The notes beneath the pieces are model-generated. The model made no database searches. It saw only the letters and a list, made by a program, of their open reading frames with translations, and had not been told where the DNA came from. A program made the translations under genes and the position numbers. Below, piece after piece: positions 6,068 through 64,000 of a DNA stretch of 64,000 nucleotides. The stretch's first letter is position 1. Every line of letters starts with the position of its first letter. This DNA is from Eledone cirrhosa (lineage: Eukaryota), in contig CAXHJY010000333.1 of assembly GCA_964016885.1 (NCBI GenBank), positions 1 to 64,000 of the forward strand, written 5' to 3'.

Positions 6068-6380
6068 GTAGAAGTTTTAGTTAAATTGTTGGGATACAAC
6101 AAGCAAATATTTTTATTACTGAATAAAGCACTCAACAAATTTTTGGAGTAAAAAAATTTGCATAAAAGACCAATAATAAAATTAATAACCCCACTATCCG
6201 GGAGCTTCCAACACACATGGTCGCATTCTTTTAAGGGTATGTCAATATTTGTTTATAAAACTGATCTATATTATATTTTATGTGATGAAAGCGCACCATA
6301 ATTTGCTTTGGTGTCCTTGAAATATGTATAATGAAATAAATATGGTTTTATAAATATAGTTTCCATTTATTAATATATTG

Positions 6381-6412: not shown

Positions 6413-6536
6413 GATATATAGATATATATACATATATATATATGTAAGTATGTATGTATACGTACATACATATATGTATACAGACGTACAGTAGCATGCA
6501 TATACGTTCAACGTTCAACTATCTGGCAGATGGGTA

Positions 6537-6581
6537 AACGGTGCTGATGATAGCTAACATGCTTGAAACTAATACATCGTT
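6537..6581 (+). ncRNA. Type I minimal hammerhead ribozyme (copy 1, stem III mismatch)
   Basis: AACGGTG-CTGATGA-TAGCTAACATGCTT-GAAAC-TAATA-CATCGTT; stem I AACGGTG/CATCGTT. Confidence 0.75.
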
Positions 6582-6749
6582 CCTGTGTCAGTGTTGAACA
6601 AAAAGGTGACGTGGTTGCCTTAACACCGTATGGCATAAATTCAGGCTGTTCGATTTGTTGACAAACAAACGAACAAAGCAGGCGGTATAATAAACGCCGG
6701 CAAAACTGATGCGTACATACATGTATGTGTAACTGTATGCATATGTGTA

Positions 6750-6839
<90 letters not shown>

Positions 6840-7073
6840 TGCTACTGTACGTCTGTATACATATATGTATGTACGTATACATACATACTTACATTTAAGT
6901 AAGTGCCATACTAAGAGTGAGAAATGAAATTTCGTTTTCATTTTTTTCAACTTATCGTTTTCGGTATGCCTGACCGATTTAACTCACTCAATATGCAAAT
7001 TAGGCTGCTCAGCCGTTAAGTTTCATAAGGAAAGTATATACTTTCGAACGTTCAACTATCTGGCAGATGGGTA

Positions 7074-7118
7074 AACGGTGCTGATGATAGCTAACAAGCT
7101 TGAAACTAGTACATCGTT
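7074..7118 (+). ncRNA. Type I minimal hammerhead ribozyme (copy 2)
   Basis: AACGGTG-CTGATGA-T-AGCT-AACA-AGCT-T-GAA-ACTAGT-A-CATCGTT; palindromic stem III ACTAGT, GUA cleavage triplet. Confidence 0.88.
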
Positions 7119-7286
7119 CCTGTGTCAGTGTTGAACAAAAATGTGACGTGGTTGCCTTAACACCGTATGGCATAAATTCAGGCTGTTCGATTTGTTGACA
7201 AACAAACGAACAAAGCAGGCGTTATAATAAACGTCGGCTAAACTGATGCGTGCATATATGTATGTGTACCTGTATGCATATGTGTA

Positions 7287-7328
<42 letters not shown>

Positions 7329-7562
7329 TGCTACTGTACGTCTGTATACATATATGTATGTACGTATACATACATACTTACATTTAAGTAAGTGCCATAC
7401 TAAGAGTGAGAAATGAAATTTCGTTTTCATTTTTTTCAACTTATCGTTTTCGGTATGCCTGACCGATTTAACTCACTCAATATGCAAATTAGGCTGCTCA
7501 GCCGTTAATTTTCATAAGGAAAGTATATACTTTCGAACGTTCAACTATCTGGCAGATGGGTA

Positions 7563-7607
7563 AACGGTGCTGATGATAGCTAACAAGCTTGAAACTAGTA
7601 CATCGTT
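7563..7607 (+). ncRNA. Type I minimal hammerhead ribozyme (copy 3)
   Basis: Identical to 7074-7118. Confidence 0.88.
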
Positions 7608-7786
7608 CCTGTGTCAGTGTTGAACAAAAAGGTGACGTGGTTGCCTAAACACCGTATGGCATAAATTCAGGCTGTTCGATTTGTTGACAAACAAACGAAC
7701 AAACCAGGCCTTATAATAAACGTCGGCTAAACTGATGCCTGCATATATGTATGTGTACCTGTATGCATATGTGTATATATATATAT

Positions 7787-7853
7787 TCCATAGAACCGCA
7801 CACCCCCTTCTCTCCCCACTCCACACTCACTCATCCCACTAACACCCCTACTA

Positions 7854-7889
<36 letters not shown>

Positions 7890-8842
7890 CCTCCTCACTC
7901 CAACTCTCACACCTACCCATCCTCGCCTCCCTACCATTCCGCTGACTGCTGCTATGCCCTTCCGACCACTGTCTCAGCACCAACTGACCACAGCACTTCC
8001 ACTGCTGACCACTTCCTGTTGCGCGCGCACCCCACATCTCTCCTCTTCCGACGACCGCTTTTTGGATTACCCACACGCGTTTTGACTTCCAACCAAAATC
8101 TCCATACATCCGTGTAACTTACCACTTTCAACCATCGTCTTACACCACCATCTATATAACTCACCCACACACATATCCCAAAACAATTTTTTTTATCCAC
8201 ACGCCACCCACACCCACAACACGCTTAAACCACACACACGTGCTTCCCACCACATATTTACACCCTCAGCCCCCTGATTCCTCTCCCCACACCCCCCTAT
8301 CCACACACGCACAGACCCTCCGACACACAAAAACACCCCCCACACACACCTTCCTGAACATGCAACCCCGTTCTTCCTCCAACCCTCACTTTCACATACA
8401 CACACACACACACACACACCTAACCACACACACCACCTTCAGCCCTCCCCGCTCGGACACCCCGTCTCCCTCTCCCCACTCCACCCGCCACCACCTCTAC
8501 TCACCCCACACCCTTCCACCACCTGTTTACCCCCCTTTTAATTTCAGTTTATTTTGATCATGCCTTTATTTTTAAATGTTCTCATTCCTTGTATTTTGAT
8601 CATGCTTTATTTTTATTTATTATTTATTATATTTTTGTCTTTATTTGTTAATTTTTCATTCGCACCGTTTCCTTTCGCTATATGTCTCTCCACCACTCCC
8701 CTACACACCTTTTGAACTCTCACCTGAAGAAGGGTTTATGCCCGAAACGTCGTCCTCCACCTACCCCCCACTCTCCTGAGCGTGAATTTAATAATCATTT
8801 ATCGTACTGCCTCTCTGTTCTGTCCCTGTTCAATTTTTCATT
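7787..8842 (+). mobile_element. C/A-rich 3' fragment of a probable PLE with minimal HHR, inserted in (TA)n
   Basis: CTGAAGA-AGGGTTTATGCCC-GAAACGTC at 8724-8751; ends in TA; a diverged inverted copy lies at 9441-10250. Confidence 0.7.
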
Positions 8843-9032
8843 ATATATATATATATATATATATATATGCATGCTACTGTACGTCTGTATACATATATGT
8901 ATGTACGTATACATACATACTTACATTTAAGTAAGTGCCATACTAAGAGTGAGAAATGAAATTTCGTTTTCATTTTTTTCAACATATATATATATATATA
9001 TGTACATATATATATATATATATATACATATC

Positions 9033-9440: not shown

Positions 9441-9873
9441 ATGAAAAATTGAACAGGGACAGAACAGAGGCAGAACAATAAATGTTTATTAAATTCACGC
9501 TCAGGAGAGTGGGGGGGGGTAGGTGGGGGACGACGTTTCGGGCATAAGCCCTTCTTCAGGTGAGAAGTGTGTGGGAACAGAGTTCAAAAGGTGTGTAGGG
9601 GAGTGGTGGAGAGACATATAGCGAAAGGAAACGGTGCGAATAAAAAATTAACAAATAAAGACAAAAAATATAATAAATAAAAATAAAGCATGATCAAAAT
9701 ACAAGGAATGAGAAAATTTAAAAATAAAGGCATGATCAAAATAAACTGAAATTAAAAGGGGGGTAAACAGGTGGTGGAAGGGTGTGGGGTGAGTAGGGGT
9801 AGTGGCGGGTGGAGTGGGGAGAGGGAGACGGGGTGTCTGAGCGGGGAGGGCTGAAGGTGGTGTGTGTGGTTAG

Positions 9874-9910
<37 letters not shown>

Positions 9911-10248
9911 AAAGTGAGGGTTGGGGGAAAAACGGAGTTGCATGTTCAGGAAGGTGTGTGTGGGGGGTGTTTTTGTGGGTCGGAGTGTCTGTACGTGTGT
10001 GGATAGGGGGTGGGGGGAGAGGAATCAGAAGGCTGAGGGTGTAAATATGTGGTGGGAAGCACGTGTGTGTGGTTTAAGCGTGGTGTGGGTGGCGTGTGGA
10101 TAAAAAAAAAATTTGGGGGGGGTGTGTGTGTGGGTGAGTTATATAGGTGATGGTGTAAGAGGATGGTTGAAAAGTTGGTAAGTTCCACGGATGTTTGGAG
10201 ATTTGGTTAGAAGTCAATTTCGCGTGTGGGTAATCCAAGAAGCGGTGG

Positions 10249-10250
<2 letters not shown>
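9441..10250 (-). mobile_element. Second copy of the same element, opposite strand
   Basis: Reverse complement aligns with 8053-8842. Minus-strand HHR CTGAAGA-A-GGGC-TTAT-GCCC-GAAACGTC at ~9532-9559. Confidence 0.75.
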
Positions 10251-13805: not shown

Positions 13806-14198
13806 TTAATTAGGTTTATAATATTTAAATGTTTTTCTTAGTTTATGATTACACGATATAATTAATTCCTGTCGTTTATTTAATAGGATATCCTTAGATT
13901 TCATTATTTCAAATAGTTCTTGGGAACATAATCTACATTCATTTCTATTATTTTCATAAGGGGTGGCTCTTTTGAGCACACTCCAGGTCATATCATATTC
14001 TATATTCTTATTTTTATAACTATTGATTTTTTCTGCTAGAGATGTTGTATTAGCCAGTGCGGCATTTTTAAAACTATGTTTGTGGGTATTAAACCTTACC
14101 TTAAAATTGTTAGAAGTAGCTCCTATATATGAGCAAATAGAATCTTTAGTTTTAACATTACATTTATTAACTATGTTGTTAACAAGACAATTTCCTTT
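13806..14198 (-). pseudogene. PLE GIY-YIG endonuclease C-terminal fragment (Naiad-like)
   Basis: [12 protein letters not shown]...[21 protein letters not shown]...TSLAEKI...CRLCSQE...[15 protein letters not shown]; colinear with the 44.2-45.2 kb protein. Confidence 0.9.
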
Positions 14199-18095
<3,897 letters not shown>

Positions 18096-19346: not shown

Positions 19347-20090
19347 CTAGCAGTGTATCCCGGCGTTGCACGGATAAGAACATTGGTAAAAGCACCTCCA
19401 CTGAGAAACGTTTATTTGTTAAAAAAGCTCACGAACTGGACATGCTCACGGACATCCAGAGTTGACACTGCACTCAATGCTCCTGTGGGAGCCCCTGCAT
19501 GGACACATTGGAAAAGGAAGACCAAAGTTAACGTATGTTGATGCCCGAAGGACAGACACTGGTCTGTTGGAGTTGCAGGACATGGCAGCGATAATGAGGG
19601 ACAGAGACCGCTGAAGAGAACTTGTCCATGGATCTCAGGAATTTTATCCGCCCTAAATAGATAGATAGATAGATAGATGTTTATGTGTATATTTATATAT
19701 AAATATGTGTAATATATATATATATATGCGTATATGTGTTTGTATATATATATATATATATATGTGTGTATGTATGTATATGTGTATATATGTGTGTGTA
19801 TATGTATATGTGTATATATATGTATGTGTGTGTGTGTGTGTGTGTGAGAATGTGGCGAAGATAATACGTCAGCAATGACGTGTTGGGCCTAATGTCGTTA
19901 TGCAGACAGCCAAGCATGCAGACATATTATAAGGGCTCGACGGAGGTAGATAACTGGCGCCTAAGACCCCTTTAACAACAGAAAATTGAAAAATAAAAGC
20001 TTCAGTTAATATCTTTAGACCGCAAGGAATATATAAATGCAAGTTTGAAGTCAATCGGAGTAGAAATGTGGATTTGTATAGGCTTTGCAA
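19347..20090 (-). mobile_element. Helitron-like fragment interrupted by an RTE 3' end
   Basis: Minus-strand terminus ATCCGTGCAACGCCGGGAT-ACACTG-CTAG|T at 19347-19375; AAGTTTGAAGTCAATCGG motif at ~20041 resembles motifs of the 47.3 kb element. Confidence 0.5.
19435..19678 (+). mobile_element. RTE LINE 3'-terminal fragment with (TAGA)n tail
   Basis: Closely matches 27708-27927. Confidence 0.88.
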
Positions 20091-26622: not shown

Positions 26623-27074
26623 CTAGCTTTCCTTTGTCCCTAAGAAGAAAAATAAAAACTAATATTTTCAATAAGAACATATAATAAAAAAAATATAGAA
26701 GGCCTAATATAAAAATGAAATCTTAGTTTTAGTAGAAATTTACGACTTTCACTCATGTATGTTTTAGTTTTGTAACCGAACCACCCGCCAAACTACTTTC
26801 TTTTGTTGTTGTTGTTGTTGTTGTTTTTATATCCTTTCTTTGTGACCGACTATTTCCTTTCTCTACCGGAAGTTATCAATCCCACATCGTGTGCGTGAAA
26901 ACTGTCCATTACACCCTAGCAAAGTTTAATGGCTGTCATTACACCTTCATGTATTCTGCGCTAAATACAAAAAGGTAAGGATAAAAAATAATGATTTATT
27001 ATATAGGCAGAAGGCCAGTAATTGAGGGGAGGGGGAAGTCGATTGAATAGACCCCAGTACATTACTGGTGCTTT

Positions 27075-27927
27075 ATGTTATTGCACTGGAGAAATACCAG
27101 GACTCTGGCTTTACTGTAGCACCGGCTCAGAGCAGGAGAGTTAAGGTGAAAAAGATATCAGATGCTGAATTTGCCGACGACATAGTTTTGGTGAAAAATA
27201 CAGTGAAGGAGGCAGAGGATTTGATGCAGGAGGTTGAGACTGTGCCGATGAGTGTGGGGCTGAGAATGAATGAGACTAAAACAAAATATCTGGTAGAGAA
27301 TGTTGAGAAGCCAGAGGGATCACTAATGTAGGCGGGAAGCCGCTAGAATTGGTTGAGGACTTCCTGTATTTGGGAGCAAAGATTGGGAATACGGAAGATG
27401 ATGTGGTTGAGAGGAAGAGCAAAGCATGGGCGGCGTGCCACAGCTTGAGATCGGTGTGGAAGTCGAACCTTCGTAAAGACCTTAAAATCCGCCCCTTCAT
27501 TGCTGTAGTGGAGTCTGTGCTGCTGTACGGGTCTGAGACTTGGACACTGACCAAGAAACTCACTCAGATGGTGGATGGGTGCTACACGAGAATACTGAGG
27601 ATGGCTCTGAACATTAATCATTATACACTGAGGATGAAAAACTCAGAGCTGTATGGGAGCCTCCCAAAAGTCAGCTCAAAAGTGACACAGAGGTGATTGA
27701 GGTTAGCTGGACATGCTCACCGACATCCAGAGTTGACATTGCACTCAGTGCTCCTGTGGGAGCCCCTACATGGACACACTGGAAGAGGAAGACCAGGGTT
27801 AACGTATGTTGATGTCCCAAGGACAGACACTGGTCTGTTGGAGACGCAGGACATGGCAGCGATAATGAGGGACAGAGACCGCTGTAGAGAACTCGTCCAT
27901 GGATCTCGGGAATTTTACCCTCCCTAG
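27075..27927 (+). pseudogene. 5'-truncated RTE-clade LINE reverse transcriptase, C-terminal half
   Basis: EFADDIVL, GLRMNETKTK, VEDFLYLG, VESVLLYGSETWTL, LRLAGH and GRGRP motifs; one frameshift (~27325) and one in-frame stop (27694-27696). Confidence 0.93.
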
Positions 27928-27949
27928 AATATATATATATATATATACA

Positions 27950-28202
27950 CAATGATATTAAATAAATGGAAACTATATTTATAAAACCATATTTATTCTA
28001 TTATATATATTTCAATGGTACCAAAACTTTGGTACGCTCTCATCAGATAAAATACAAAGCTTGTTTTATAAATATTGACATAACCAGGGAAGAAGAATTT
28101 ACAGGTTCAAGTTTTTCCTGGATAGAAAAACTGTCGAGTGCTTTAAATCAGTTATAAACTTTTAAATTTGTTGAATTACCAACAAATTGAATATCCGTTT
28201 TG

Positions 28203-28204
<2 letters not shown>
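27950..28204 (-). mobile_element. Family B pseudo-LTR fragment with HHR and inverted terminal piece
   Basis: Minus strand TATTTTAT-CTGATGA-GAGCGTACCAAAGTTTTGGTACCATT-GAA-ATATATAT-A-ATAGAATA (core at 28040-28046). Confidence 0.8.
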
Positions 28205-31825: not shown

Positions 31826-32141
31826 GTAGAAGTTATATTTAATTTGTTGGGATACAACAAGCAAATATTTATATAACTGATATAAAGCACTCAACAAATT
31901 ATTGGAGTAAAAATACGATATATCATTTGTTAATAAATATTGACATACCCTTAAACTATCCGCGAGCTTCCAACAGAAATGGTCGCATTCTTTAAGGGTA
32001 TGTCAATATTTATTTATAAAACTGATCTATATTATATTTTATCTGATGAAAGCGCACCATAATTTGACTTGGTGTCCTTGAAATATGTATAATGAAATAA
32101 ATATGGTTTTATAAATATAGTTTTCATTTGTTAATATATCG

Positions 32142-32143
<2 letters not shown>
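31826..32143 (+). mobile_element. Family B pseudo-LTR fragment with HHR and inverted pieces
   Basis: ATTTTAT-CTGATGA(32043)-AAGCGCACCA...TGGTGTCCTT-GAA-ATATGTAT-A-ATGAAAT; internal inverted repeat ~31931-31953/31992-32014. Confidence 0.82.
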
Positions 32144-32194
<51 letters not shown>

Positions 32195-43725: not shown

Positions 43726-43763
<38 letters not shown>

Positions 43764-44194
43764 TAAAATAACAGATTAATGTTTAAGCAAAGAATCGCTG
43801 CTTTCACCCTTAACGGGATCTTCTGAAACTAACAAAGTCAATCTGTAAACGCAGAACTGGATATTTCAAAAAACGTTGCAGCCGGAGGAAGACAGGAAGA
43901 CGATACTTTGGTTCGTGGAAACGTTCGCTGGCTAAGAACGGGAAAAAACGAATAATACGTCATTAATAGGAGCGGTGAAAAACAATTACGCGCAAAGACA
44001 GAACCACGTTTATGGTATAAAAGAGGTCGTAGACTAATGTTCTCTTAGGTGGTGCATAGAGACGTTCTCTGGCAAGGAACGAAAAAACGAAGATAATAAG
44101 TCATATGTGGAGCGTGGAGAACAATAGCACGCAAAGACAAAACCACGTAAATGGTATAGCAGAAGTTGTAGACTAAAATTCTAACTAGGAGACC

Positions 44195-45172
44195 AATCTC
44201 TCGGTCGTTAATTACCTCGACGTTACCCTCAATTTATTGAATGGGTTGTATTCCCCGTATAGAAAGCCGAATGATACACTTAATTACATAAGTAAGCATT
44301 CCAACCATCCTGCCAGCATAACCAAGAACCTGGTAAAAAACGTTTCGTTGAGGCTTTCCCGTCTTTCCACCAACGAGCGCATTTTCAATGACCATTCCAC
44401 TTATTACAATGAAAATCTTGCTCGAAGTGGATTTGTCGATAAGGTAGCATATACAGAGTACGAAAATAGACCTAGAAGAAATAGATCCCGTCGCATTTGT
44501 TGGTTTAACCCACCATATAATATGGAGGTGGCCACACCATTAGCTAAGATCTTTCTTTCCCTTATTACGAAGCATTTTCCCCCTACACATAAATATAGTA
44601 AAATTTTTAATAGAAATACTATTCAAATTTCTTACTCTACGACTCCTAACCTTGCACATAACATCACAGCTTCAAATTTAGCTAAACTACCTAGCCGTAG
44701 GAACACGTGCAACCCTGTAGTTAGTACTAACTGTAATTGTAGAAATCGGGCTGATTGCCCCCTATCCGGGAAATGCCTCTCTAGTAACATTGTCTACAAA
44801 TGTAAGGTTGTAACACCCACGTCCCGTAGGGCCTACATAGGGTTAACCGCCAATAGTTTCAAGCAGCGTATTTACATGCATACCCATTCTTTTCGTTACC
44901 CTCTAAGAAGGAATATGACGTCACTTTCAGCTTATATCTGGAGTCTAAAAGATAACCACACCCAATATAAGTTACACTCGGAGATCCTAGCTAGGGCTAG
45001 ATCGTATAACGGAAATAAAAGACCATGTGACCTCTGCGCAGCTGAGGCCCTGGAAATACTCTACGCCACAGACCACATCTTAAACAAAAACTCTGAGGCA
45101 ATTTCGGCTTGTAAACATAAATTGCACAAAACTTTCCTGTATTACAGCCCCATGTTATACCCTAACGGATAG
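44195..45172 (+). CDS. PLE polyprotein C-terminus: RT motif 7/thumb, Cys linker, GIY-YIG endonuclease (Naiad-like); 5' truncated, frame intact
   Basis: NLSVVNYLDVTLNL, YRKPND...SNHP, WFNPPY, CNCx5Cx5C, NIVY...YIGLT..FKQR..H, CDLC..E, LNK..E..CKH. Confidence 0.95.
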   Translation, partial: NLSVVNYLDVTLNLLNGLYSPYRKPNDTLNYISKHSNHPASITKNLVKNVSLRLSRLSTNERIFNDHSTYYNENLARSGFVDKVAYTEYENRPRRNRSRRICWFNPPYNMEVATPLAKIFLSLITKHFPPTHKYSKIFNRNTIQISYSTTPNLAHNITASNLAKLPSRRNTCNPVVSTNCNCRNRADCPLSGKCLSSNIVYKCKVVTPTSRRAYIGLTANSFKQRIYMHTHSFRYPLRRNMTSLSAYIWSLKDNHTQYKLHSEILARARSYNGNKRPCDLCAAEALEILYATDHILNKNSEAISACKHKLHKTFLYYSPMLYPNG

Positions 45173-46096
45173 CACGATCTATACGTGGATATTTTACGTC
45201 TTGATGTGGGAGCTAAGTATATGTTTTGTTTATTCCTTTACTTATTTGCATAGGTAAGTATATATTACCCGTATGTTTTGTGGAGGTATGTATACCTTCT
45301 CGTACGTATATTTGACTATTTTGGCGTATAATTTTTACATATTCTGGTATTTAGGGTTTGGCTATGTGTATACGGGAGTTTTGCGTCTGCATGAGTAAGC
45401 AGGTTCGTACGTATGGTGGGTGTGTGTATATGTGTACTTCTTGTTTTAGTTGACTTACGTCTCCGAACATTCGTGTATTTATTTGTAGGTATGTGTGTGC
45501 GCTTGTTATATACGTATTTATTTACTTATATACGTTTATATAATTATTTATTTATTTGTACACAAGCATACACACACATATTTATATGTGCGTGGTTTCG
45601 TATACCTATGGTAAGGTTTTGCGTATGCTTGTGTATGTATGTATCTGTTTGCGTGTATGTATTTATTTGTTTCTATTACTTCTGTATTGTATTTATTTAC
45701 TTTGTTCTTAACTCTGTAGCGGAGATTCATTTGGTCTCCTAGTTAGAATTTTAGTCTACAACTTCTGCTATACCATTTACGTGGTTTTGTCTTTGCGTGC
45801 TATTGTTCTCCACGCTCCACATATGACTTATTATCTTCGTTTTTTTGTTCCTTGCCAGAGAACGTCTCTATGCACCACCTAAGAGAACATTAGTCTACGA
45901 CCTCTTTTATACCATAAACGTGGTTCTGTCTTTGCGCGTAATTGTTTTTCACCGCTCCTATTAATGACGTATTATTCGTTTTTTCCCGTTCTTAGCCAGC
46001 GAACGTTTCCACGAACCAAAGTATCGTCTTCCTGTCTTCCTCCGGTTGCAACGTTTTTTGAAATATCCAGTTCTGCGTTTACAGATTGACTTTGTT

Positions 46097-46147
46097 AGTT
46101 TCAGAAGATCCCGTTAAGGGTGAAAGCAGCGATTCTTTGCTTAAACT
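46097..46147 (+). ncRNA. Hammerhead-like motif with variant core CAGAAGA
   Basis: AGTTT-CAGAAGA-TCCCGTTAAGGGT-GAA-AGCA..TGCT-T-AAACT; same core at 20104, 20366 and in the inverted arm (~43780-43830). Confidence 0.6.
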
Positions 46148-46276
46148 TTAATCTGTTATTTTAATAAATATTTGCTCTACGGTTCTTATAAATTTGATAT
46201 ATATTTTCCTTATCGAGACCTCTTTGGATTTTAGTCTTCAATTTTATTATTACTATATATATATATATATATATAT

Positions 46277-50805: not shown

Positions 50806-51217
50806 TACAATATTAAATAAATGGAAAACTATATTTATAAAACCATATTTATTTCATTATATATATTTCGGGGATATCATATTAACAATATGCTATGCCT
50901 TCATCAGACAAAATAGGTCAAAAGGTCTGTAAAATACAGCTCATCTCCATTTTTTTCCATCAAGTGTGACCACACGAGGGCCAAACAAGAGTGAACCTCT
51001 TCAACTGAAGTTGATGTTTATTACGGTATGTCGAATATATTTATCTATAAAACTGTTTATATTGTATTTTGTCTGATGAAGGCATAGCATATTGTTAATA
51101 TGATATCCCCGAAATATATATAATGAAATAAATATGGTTTTATAAATATAGTTTTCCATTTATTTAATATTGTAAATATACTCCAAATATTTGTCGAGTG
51201 CTTTTATATCAGTTATA

Positions 51218-51221
<4 letters not shown>
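50806..51221 (+). mobile_element. Family B PLE end with two HHRs head-to-head
   Basis: ~50806-50915 is the reverse complement of ~51065-51174; TATTTTGT-CTGATGA(51073)...GAA-ATATATAT-A-ATGAAATA. Confidence 0.87.
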
Positions 51222-61938: not shown

Positions 61939-63140
61939 GTTCAAAATCCTCTACTGAATCCCTCAAATCGGATACACTACTACAGGAAATATCAGAAAAA
62001 CTCACCATAATAATAGATAAATATGATTCCCTTACGAATGCCGTACAAGAAATGGAACAACAAACACGCAGCTATAGGGAAAAACTTGATTCACTAATTA
62101 CAGACCGGCAAAAACAAGAACAAACCTTTTCTCCTGAATTAGCTACACATGAACAGAACTCCATCACCAATAATGCATTCAAAGAATGGAATGAACTGAA
62201 CCTAGAAAAAGAAGCCTACAGAAAAAGAAACCAAATGAAAAACATTTGGAACCCTTTATTAAATCAAAGGAAACAGGCATACTGGAAAGCCTTGAGGAGT
62301 GAAAACCTAGCAGACACATACGAAATATGGCTTAGCAAGGAACCAGTTATCCTCCCGAGAAAATTCCGAATTAAAGAAATACCATCGGAATCAAAGGAAG
62401 AAACTGCAACAAGACTAAATCTAGCACTCCAAACACTTGAGACCGAAATCACCCTACTCCGCCTAAGAGTGCCAAAATTCAAAGAGAAATTTGAAAAATG
62501 CGACACCACCATCCAAGAGGAAATAAATAAAAGAAGCAGCGGCAATGTACGTGAAAAACTCCTTAACCTATGGCAGACAGATACAACTAGAGAGGAGTTA
62601 AAATCAAAGAAAATCTTGGAGTCAAGAACTCAATGGCTTCAAGAATATGAAGATAACTATGAGAAAGACCAAATAAAACCCAGAAAACAAACCCATAGGA
62701 AACCCCAGAACTCAGGAAAATACAACAACACAAGAAATGAAGCACCCACACACAATAAACCAACAACAACCAGATATTGGGTAACCCCAAACACACAACT
62801 ACATACAGACCCAATACTCAACACCAGAACCAGATACAACCACTGCCATAACACCAAGAACAATCACCGGAGACAAAATCAAAGACACATGAATACTGAA
62901 CGAACCAACAGAAGAACCAGACCCCCATACAGCAACGGCCACGCAAGAGTCTATCGCCCAACCAGTTACCGACATGAAGTTCCGGCGGGCCAAAGGTTTC
63001 ACCACAACAGAAACACCCCTATCCCAAATGGCCCCTATTTTTTAGGACTAGGGGCCTCGCACCAAATGAAAGAAAAAAAGAAAAAAGCACCACCTTTCAA
63101 GTGGCACCTGACGAGAAAGAACCAATCGAACCAAAAATAA
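61920..63140 (+). CDS. PLE ORF1-like protein: coiled-coil N-terminal part, basic disordered C-terminus (true start uncertain)
   Basis: 406 open codons of non-repetitive sequence; heptad-like LLQEISEKLTIIIDKYDSLTNAVQEMEQ; overlaps the RT frame. Confidence 0.75.
   Translation: MSNELTRSKSSTESLKSDTLLQEISEKLTIIIDKYDSLTNAVQEMEQQTRSYREKLDSLITDRQKQEQTFSPELATHEQNSITNNAFKEWNELNLEKEAYRKRNQMKNIWNPLLNQRKQAYWKALRSENLADTYEIWLSKEPVILPRKFRIKEIPSESKEETATRLNLALQTLETEITLLRLRVPKFKEKFEKCDTTIQEEINKRSSGNVREKLLNLWQTDTTREELKSKKILESRTQWLQEYEDNYEKDQIKPRKQTHRKPQNSGKYNNTRNEAPTHNKPTTTRYWVTPNTQLHTDPILNTRTRYNHCHNTKNNHRRQNQRHMNTERTNRRTRPPYSNGHARVYRPTSYRHEVPAGQRFHHNRNTPIPNGPYFLGLGASHQMKEKKKKAPPFKWHLTRKNQSNQK
63038..63044 (+). 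promoter_or_regulatory. Candidate -1 ribosomal frameshift heptamer T_TTT_TTA
   Basis: Correct X_XXY_YYZ phase in ORF1 (TAT TTT TTA GGA); the -1 product enters the RT frame. Confidence 0.7.
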
Positions 63141-64000
63141 TCAATATATCAGCCAAGAAATTAACACAACCAGAAATACAACTGTTAGAAAATGGACTGA
63201 AGTTCACTCCCACTCCGAAAGCAGACACAGCCGATGTTATAAACGACACAGAAGAATACTGTCGAAAATTACGCTTAGGAGAATTCTTCCAGGGTGTACA
63301 ATACGAGGAAGAATCACTGGTGAAAAACAAAAAGAACTTCACACCCCCGCTAAATAGAGATAAATACCTGGAGGAATACATAACCTGCCTTCGCCGATCA
63401 GCACGTACAAATACGGCCGAGACGAAACACAAATGCAACATCCCTACAGACCAACTACTAGCATTGAACAAGCTACAAAGAGATTCCTCAATAATAATAA
63501 AAGAAGCGGACAAAGGTGGAGCAATCGTCATCATGGACACAAACCACTACAAAGATATGGTCCTAGCACACTTGAATGACGAAAACTTCTACAGGAAAAT
63601 CACTAAAAACGAAGAAAGGAAATCGAGGAACCAAATAGGCAAACTAACAACAAAGTACCAAAACAACCTAACACCAAAAGAAGTAGATTACCTAACCAAC
63701 TTCGAAATGAAAACCAGCAATTTCTATGGATTACCAAAAATTCACAAATCCATAGAAATCCAAAACAACATAAAAGGGAAAAATACATCATACATCGAAG
63801 CACCAAAACCGAGAGACTTAAAATTACACCCCATTATTGCTGGCCCAGCCTCAAGCACACAACGTCTAAGCAACCTATTAGACATCATACTCAAACCCCT
63901 ATGTAAAAAAGTTCCAAGCTACATCAGAGATGATATGGAATTCCTTAACTATATCCCCCAAAAAGTACACCAGGATACAATCCGAGTCAGTTTTGATGTA
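63044..64000 (+). CDS. PLE reverse transcriptase N-terminal region, -1 frame, runs off the window (absent from the ORF track)
   Basis: Hand translation has no stops: IINISAKKLTQPEIQLLENGLKFTPTP, RKLRLGEFF, IIIKEADKGGAIVIMD, FYGLPKIHK, LHPIIAG, SYIRDD, VSFDV. Confidence 0.95.

Follow-up and report, generated by a model that had tools for sequence, protein, structure and literature searches.

Tandem hammerhead-bearing repeats with a Penelope-type insertion footprint in Eledone cirrhosa: a probable non-LTR retrozyme

Tandem units with an internal TA tract

We analysed a 64,000-nt stretch of the Eledone cirrhosa genome (assembly GCA_964016885.1, contig CAXHJY010000333.1, positions 1 to 64,000; hereafter the window), in which positions 6442-8983 hold three tandem non-coding repeats of ~0.5 kb, each with a predicted hammerhead and a TA microsatellite. 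The locus is made up of the following features:

6442-6504, minus strand: inverted 5' stub, the reverse complement of TATAT plus part B 1-58
6505-6511, plus strand: 5' junction, at the base of the extended helix I; the 7-nt CGTTCAA is directly duplicated here
6510-7046, plus strand: unit 1, 537 bp; part A with hammerhead, (TA)38 at 6760-6835, part B at 6837-7046
6537-6581, plus strand: hammerhead 1; helix III ACTAAT, helix II change at 6560, predicted cut after 6574
6993-7000 and again 7482-7489, plus strand: octamer ATGCAAAT, candidate promoter element
7047-7535, plus strand: unit 2, 489 bp; part A, (TA)15 at 7295-7324, part B at 7326-7535
7050-7136, plus strand: hammerhead 2, based on folds and family variation; predicted cut after 7111 (GUA)
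7244-7370, plus strand: predicted long purine-pyrimidine hairpin capped by the TA tract
7536-7785, plus strand: unit 3 part A with hammerhead 3 and (TA)6
within 7536-7785, plus strand: hammerhead 3, predicted cut after 7600
7786-8841, plus strand: separate PLE-type (Penelope-like element) fragment inside the unit 3 TA tract
8842-8926, plus strand: remainder of unit 3, (TA)13 and part B 1-58
8927-8983, plus strand: 57-nt 3' tail (part B 59-115), at this end only, followed by the right TA flank

Every unit has the same layout—part A (~250 nt, bearing the hammerhead), then a TA tract, then part B (210 nt)—and all three share one fixed register, with a B-to-A junction that is identical throughout. 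Pure TA tracts of (TA)38, (TA)15, and (TA)6+(TA)13 occupy units 1, 2, and 3, respectively, and the GC content of the unit is 35%. The hammerhead cores begin at 6544, 7081, and 7570, in agreement with the spacing of 537 and 489 bp given in the original prediction; a scan of the window for the core pattern returned these three matches, against none in 100 shuffles, and the core together with a 5-bp helix I appeared in 4 of 20,000 shuffled units. No copies of the unit were found elsewhere in the window. That prediction had also taken 6442-8983 as a single retrozyme tandem, which probably holds for the repeats but not for ~1,055 bp of the interval, since 7786-8841 is an unrelated Penelope-type 3' fragment.

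The units had been proposed to lack coding capacity, and our annotation concurs: neither of the two unit frames scanned matched a Pfam family, ATG-started open reading frames (ORFs) of at least 25 aa within 6837-7786 were only short or microsatellite-derived, and no ORF for a reverse transcriptase (RT) or GIY-YIG endonuclease lay in or adjoining the units. A 31-codon ORF at 6924 in part B was dropped as a gene candidate, given that variants within the family include frameshifts and residue changes. Part B also contains a candidate intron motif, GTAAGT, at 6899.

Predicted hammerhead ribozymes

The hammerhead motifs of units 2 and 3 appear intact, with a 7-bp helix I extended by further stems, a CUGAUGA...GAAA core, a 4-bp helix II with a U.U pair at its base, a helix III of a single pair with a CUAG loop (the palindromic ACUAGU), and a GUA cleavage triplet. 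Helix I of hammerhead 2 pairs 7074-7080 with 7112-7118, and its outer extension pairs 7050-7056 with 7130-7136. A palindromic stem III (ACTAGT) had been ascribed to the tandem as a whole; it is present in two of the three units, but unit 1 has ACTAAT plus the change in helix II, and its hammerhead is likely impaired. By their sequence and predicted pairing, the unit hammerheads are canonical type I motifs with a long helix I, as in retrozymes, rather than of the minimal Penelope kind. Canonical metazoan hammerheads are described as working as dimers, with features that match those of units 2 and 3, whereas the hammerheads of metazoan PLEs are described as minimal, with a short helix I, an extra base after position 9, and G10.1-C11.1 (both PMC4209133).

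An Rfam search returned no hammerhead at the gathering score (best hit HH9, 18.5 bits, E 0.75), and Rfam microRNA matches in the units were rejected as microsatellite artefacts. Folded without constraint, a single hammerhead takes a minimum-energy structure (-28.9 kcal/mol) in which the core is mispaired; the active structure, at -21.3 kcal/mol, is ~7.6 kcal/mol costlier for the monomer. The whole monomer is predicted to be highly self-paired (z -7.5; z -3.8 without the microsatellite arm, and -3.0 for the opposite strand), with 67% of the predicted circle paired. In Xenopus, one of nine predicted retrozyme dimers is reported to have cleaved (Li et al. 2026, bioRxiv 10.64898/2026.07.22.740005).

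An inverted stub and a one-sided tail

The 63-bp inverted stub originally noted at the 5' end is an exact reverse complement of 6832-6894 (63/63) that cannot be extended on either side, and its outer end, at B58, directly abuts the left TA flank. At the opposite end the main copy runs to B115 before meeting TA, 57 nt past the B58 limit of the stub. Both flanks consist of degenerate TA, inside which no TSD is readable. An inverted, 5'-truncated copy combined with a tail on one side only is the signature described for endonuclease-bearing PLEs (PMC8557442; PMC3846280).

Two further insertions in the window carry a comparable footprint of stub plus tail within TA. The first, at 43760-46253, has a 437-bp inverted copy (99.3% identical) and a tail of ~82 nt; it is a 5'-truncated PLE with a 317-codon frame of RT-C-terminal/GIY-YIG type at 44219-45169, 45% identical to a GIY-YIG-like ORF at 13809-14204; the homologue P0016 gave weak RVT_1 and GIY-YIG matches, below the Pfam curated cut-offs. 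The second, at 50810-51220, has an inverted copy of ~110 nt and a tail of ~48 nt. At 57 nt, the retrozyme tail exceeds the published 30-40 nt yet falls inside the 48-82 nt range of the window. The earlier suggestion that the stub fits a PLE integration signature seen elsewhere in the window is thus strengthened by the 3' tail and by both comparators.

For the neighbouring PLE protein, 266 homologue matches were obtained, of which 120 are listed. The 3' repeat of the PLE at 43760-46253 contains tandem repeats of ~139 bp, and a loose hammerhead pattern found no motif in it. Small hammerhead-like PLE ends are embedded in TA tracts at 6068-6372, 27950-28204, 31826-32145, and 50810-51220; some copies of this family have an inverted stub and tail, and one member directly adjoins the left flank of the retrozyme.

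Taking these features together, we read the locus as probably a single insertion inside a TA microsatellite: a tandem non-coding repeat whose hammerhead motifs are canonical type I, with an inverted stub at the 5' end and a tail at the 3' end alone. Most plausibly it is a non-LTR retrozyme for which an endonuclease-bearing PLE served in trans as the copying machinery. The retrozyme identity first proposed for the repeats is supported by their tandem, low-GC, non-coding units, their canonical type I hammerhead, and the predicted self-pairing of the monomer. No PLE in the window shares sequence with the unit.

The same footprint is, nonetheless, exactly what a truncated PLE copy would leave, and PLEs with tandem hammerheads exist (PMC7229834); the units might accordingly be tandem hammerhead-bearing pseudo-LTRs of a longer PLE, with the locus being a 5'-truncated copy of it. 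We consider this unlikely, given that the hammerheads described for metazoan PLEs are minimal (PMC4209133) and those of the units canonical, and that the units keep a fixed register with a B-to-A junction common to all three. A different possibility is that one PLE-inserted unit or dimer was multiplied on site by unequal crossing-over, as a satellite in which the hammerhead is a passenger and no circle is made. Local amplification of PLE termini has been proposed (Li et al. 2026, bioRxiv 10.64898/2026.07.22.740005), but at this locus the stub and tail both derive from the interior of part B and agree with the internal units (63/63 and 115/115), so at least part of the tandem already existed at insertion; on-site multiplication from a single unit or dimer seems to us very improbable.

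Variation across the family in sequencing runs

In one run (X1, the kind of which is not on record), 4,285 contigs align on 6837-7284, comprising 905 at 99% identity or above, 1,467 at 95-99%, 1,494 at 90-95%, and 419 under 90%. Nineteen of the 25 listed variant positions fall in 7047-7284, part A being more variable than part B. Hammerheads leave core position 7 and loop 2 free, and among the listed variants the core and helices II-III vary only at 7085 (core N7, 42%) and 7095 (loop 2, 52%), the sole two positions within 7081-7112. This invariance of the core across the family argues against the hammerhead as a passenger in a local satellite. In helix I, the variants A7074T (42%) and G7078T (5%) would break pairs unless they reflect shifts in the alignment. 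Summed depth in X1 (7e4-1.9e6) is taken here as neither copy number nor expression level.

The arrangement of parts A and B is also seen in run contigs. Single contigs span the B-to-A junction in runs X5 (6915-7283) and X7 (6905-7188), which again weighs against on-site multiplication, and in a diverged X5 contig part A is preceded by B-like sequence; one X1 contig passes from the end of part A into TA. The share of X1 contigs that continue into unlike sequence is zero, although contigs in repeats are short, and the displayed loose end upstream of A is B-like, observations that count weakly against the units being pseudo-LTRs of a longer element; this comparison covers 9 displayed loose ends of 98 and leaves aside the TA-adjacent stretch 6837-6904. 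Contig joints among those listed include three opposite-strand joints and no skip joints. One of the opposite-strand joints (X5 record 10) has a plus-strand part with a possible start near 7041, not far from where the window copy begins; it is represented by one contig at depth 4, with 38 letters unplaced.

Across the run search, 20 of the 24 listed rows, from 15 studies, contain part of the stretch, with no RNA run among the rows listed; four of the runs were aligned to it. Depth is 3-13 in runs X5 and X7, next to none of the stretch is present in two sibling runs from the sample of X7, and none of the 12.8 million reads of the raw-read run X23 match. Because of the near-empty siblings, the zero in X23, and possible carry-over, we claim no wide host range. 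Pattern scans of metagenome and viral contigs returned no matches, and a looser pattern returned at least 117 loci, none of these with a complete hammerhead or real homology.

Copying template and proposed mechanism

Differences between the units are unevenly distributed. Part A has 13 private substitutions over 678 nt (8, 1, and 4 per unit), and part B and the stub together have a single one over 598 nt (Fisher p=0.002). Such unevenness is not predicted by copying round one monomer circle with uniform decay afterwards, a model that is disfavoured (p=0.002); the pattern argues against a single-monomer-circle template, with which it would fit poorly, whereas uneven differences would be expected from an RNA of several units, from switching of template among monomers, or from local conversion affecting part B. 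It is likely, then, that the window copy was made from RNA of several non-identical units and not by rolling round one circle. Non-identical units would also suit the fixed multi-unit 3' end of a longer PLE, and the identical B parts could mean recent local homogenisation, as expected of a satellite multiplied on site.

Under the preferred reading, a non-LTR retrozyme copied in trans, a multi-unit transcript would be produced, in which adjacent hammerheads, paired to each other through ACUAGU, would cleave after GUA and release monomers of ~490 nt for a host ligase to circularise. The nick in (TA)n would be made by a Penelope RT/GIY-YIG protein; RNA copying by this protein would begin 58 nt downstream of the TA tract inside the unit, a starting point that would give rise to the stub and tail. 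The template would be uncut multimer, or the enzyme would switch between monomers. The TA tract would travel inside the unit and, at this locus, would later have received one further PLE-type insertion.

The TA tract as a landing site

Counted from the TA tract, the two outer ends of the retrozyme are 58 and 115 nt downstream; since both fall on that side, the tract lies inside the copied RNA, which bears out the proposal that the monomer carries a TA tract of its own. The predicted arm that holds it at its tip folds at -63.2 kcal/mol over 7244-7384, with 13 of 500 RY-preserving shuffles as stable (450 of 500 for the minus strand).

The insertion in unit 3 (7786-8841) interrupts the tract, with (TA)6 before it and (TA)13 after it, and part B then continues in register. 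It is a C/A-rich, 5'-truncated 3' fragment with no ORF and a minimal hammerhead at 8724, and we call it PLE-type because of that hammerhead and its TA-anchored 3' end; the motif at 8724 fits the minimal PLE type, whereas the retrozyme units, with their long helix I and U.U pair, do not. Over 830 columns the fragment is 89% identical to an inverted copy at 9441-10250, with which it shares its 3' end. Because the two copies lie tail-to-tail at this level of identity, we treat them as independent insertions. They are 600 bp apart and are the sole two copies of their family in the window, a possible case of local clustering.

As one of the three units later took a PLE-type insertion, the TA tract of the retrozyme can act as a target. 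The further claim that the element spreads new PLE landing sites therefore has one local case in its favour, in unit 3, but the scale is trivial: the retrozyme supplies only 3 of the 238 (TA)>=10 tracts of the window, and its contribution of landing sites is accordingly small.

A candidate promoter

The octamer at 6993 lies 54 nt ahead of the point where the window copy begins; the same octamer occurs in 708 of 20,000 shuffled units, a 3.5% chance per unit. Newt satellite 2, cited as having an internal promoter of snRNA type (PMC2220036), resembles the present units in carrying a dimer-type hammerhead in a tandem repeat, and the octamer upstream of the hammerhead here is a motif match only. 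According to one review, retrozymes seem to be without promoters (PMC7761336). One could picture a self-sufficient retrozyme in which each unit would bring its own promoter of snRNA type, made up of the octamer block of part B and a start at the base of helix I, where the window copy begins, together with a Penelope target microsatellite that tops a long double-stranded arm; its circular RNA would be very abundant and copied by Penelope enzymes, seeding TA tracts in which Penelope elements and its own copies nest. We regard this extended scenario as quite unlikely. At 7020-7030, about half of the X1 depth carries T7021A together with T7023G, creating a second AATATGCA motif 28 nt after that of the octamer.

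Relation to known elements

The locus resembles metazoan non-LTR retrozymes as these have been described (PMC7229834; bioRxiv 10.64898/2026.07.22.740005) in its tandem, non-coding, low-GC units and canonical type I hammerhead, and has at least two consecutive units of a few hundred bp with GC below 45-50%, the features by which retrozymes are recognised. The unit hammerheads agree with those described for axolotl retrozymes in their extended 7-bp helix I, 4-bp helix II, and 1-bp helix III with a palindromic tetraloop; a weak palindromic helix III is described for axolotl HHR_Amex1, and a U.U at the base of helix II for HHR_Amex2 (PMC7229834). The unit length of 489-537 nt lies above the 150-450 bp given by Cervera & de la Pena 2020 (PMC7229834) and inside the 51-972 bp given by Li, Clavereau & Pollet 2026 (bioRxiv 10.64898/2026.07.22.740005). 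Compared with the metazoan retrozymes in the main text of these reports, the internal TA microsatellite and a full PLE stub-and-tail are found only here, at a locus the retrozyme activity of which is predicted.

Insertions of endonuclease-bearing PLEs are described with a head-to-head inverted 5' copy, a one-sided 3' tail, and a partial tandem, all as here, and with a (TA)n target that is stated in print for Naiads (PMC3846280, PMC8557442). The retrozyme differs from these elements in having no RT/GIY-YIG ORF, a canonical rather than minimal hammerhead, and a fixed unit register.

The class itself is already known, and the locus likely adds to non-LTR retrozymes a member in which the Penelope footprint is unusually easy to read. 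So far, arguments about the autonomous element that moves animal retrozymes have been indirect: the link to PLEs is drawn from co-occurrence and pseudo-LTR homology (Li et al. 2026, bioRxiv 10.64898/2026.07.22.740005), and retrozyme repeats show no motif that identifies the partner element, according to a 2020 review (PMC7761336). In the text of Li et al. 2026 (bioRxiv 10.64898/2026.07.22.740005), as far as it was available, the term "tail" is absent and "inverted" occurs only in a reference. An intact stub-and-tail on a tandem with canonical hammerheads is direct physical evidence for PLE machinery, at one locus, and the footprint offers a genome-wide test of that machinery; the uneven differences between units, also from one locus, test the rolling-circle insertion model. 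A literature search of titles and abstract openings, with coverage of few subscription papers, found no cephalopod or microsatellite-bearing retrozyme, and the giant squid genome paper gives 235 hammerhead hits without analysis (PMC6962438).

Other retroelement remains are scattered through the window. Long frames at 61956-64000, with no convincing Pfam match, resemble the N-terminal half of a retroelement ORF and run past the window end, and decayed reverse transcriptase fragments (RVT_1, E 5e-5) lie at 27047-27930 and 19436-19655, with a 92%-identical second copy of the 3' part.
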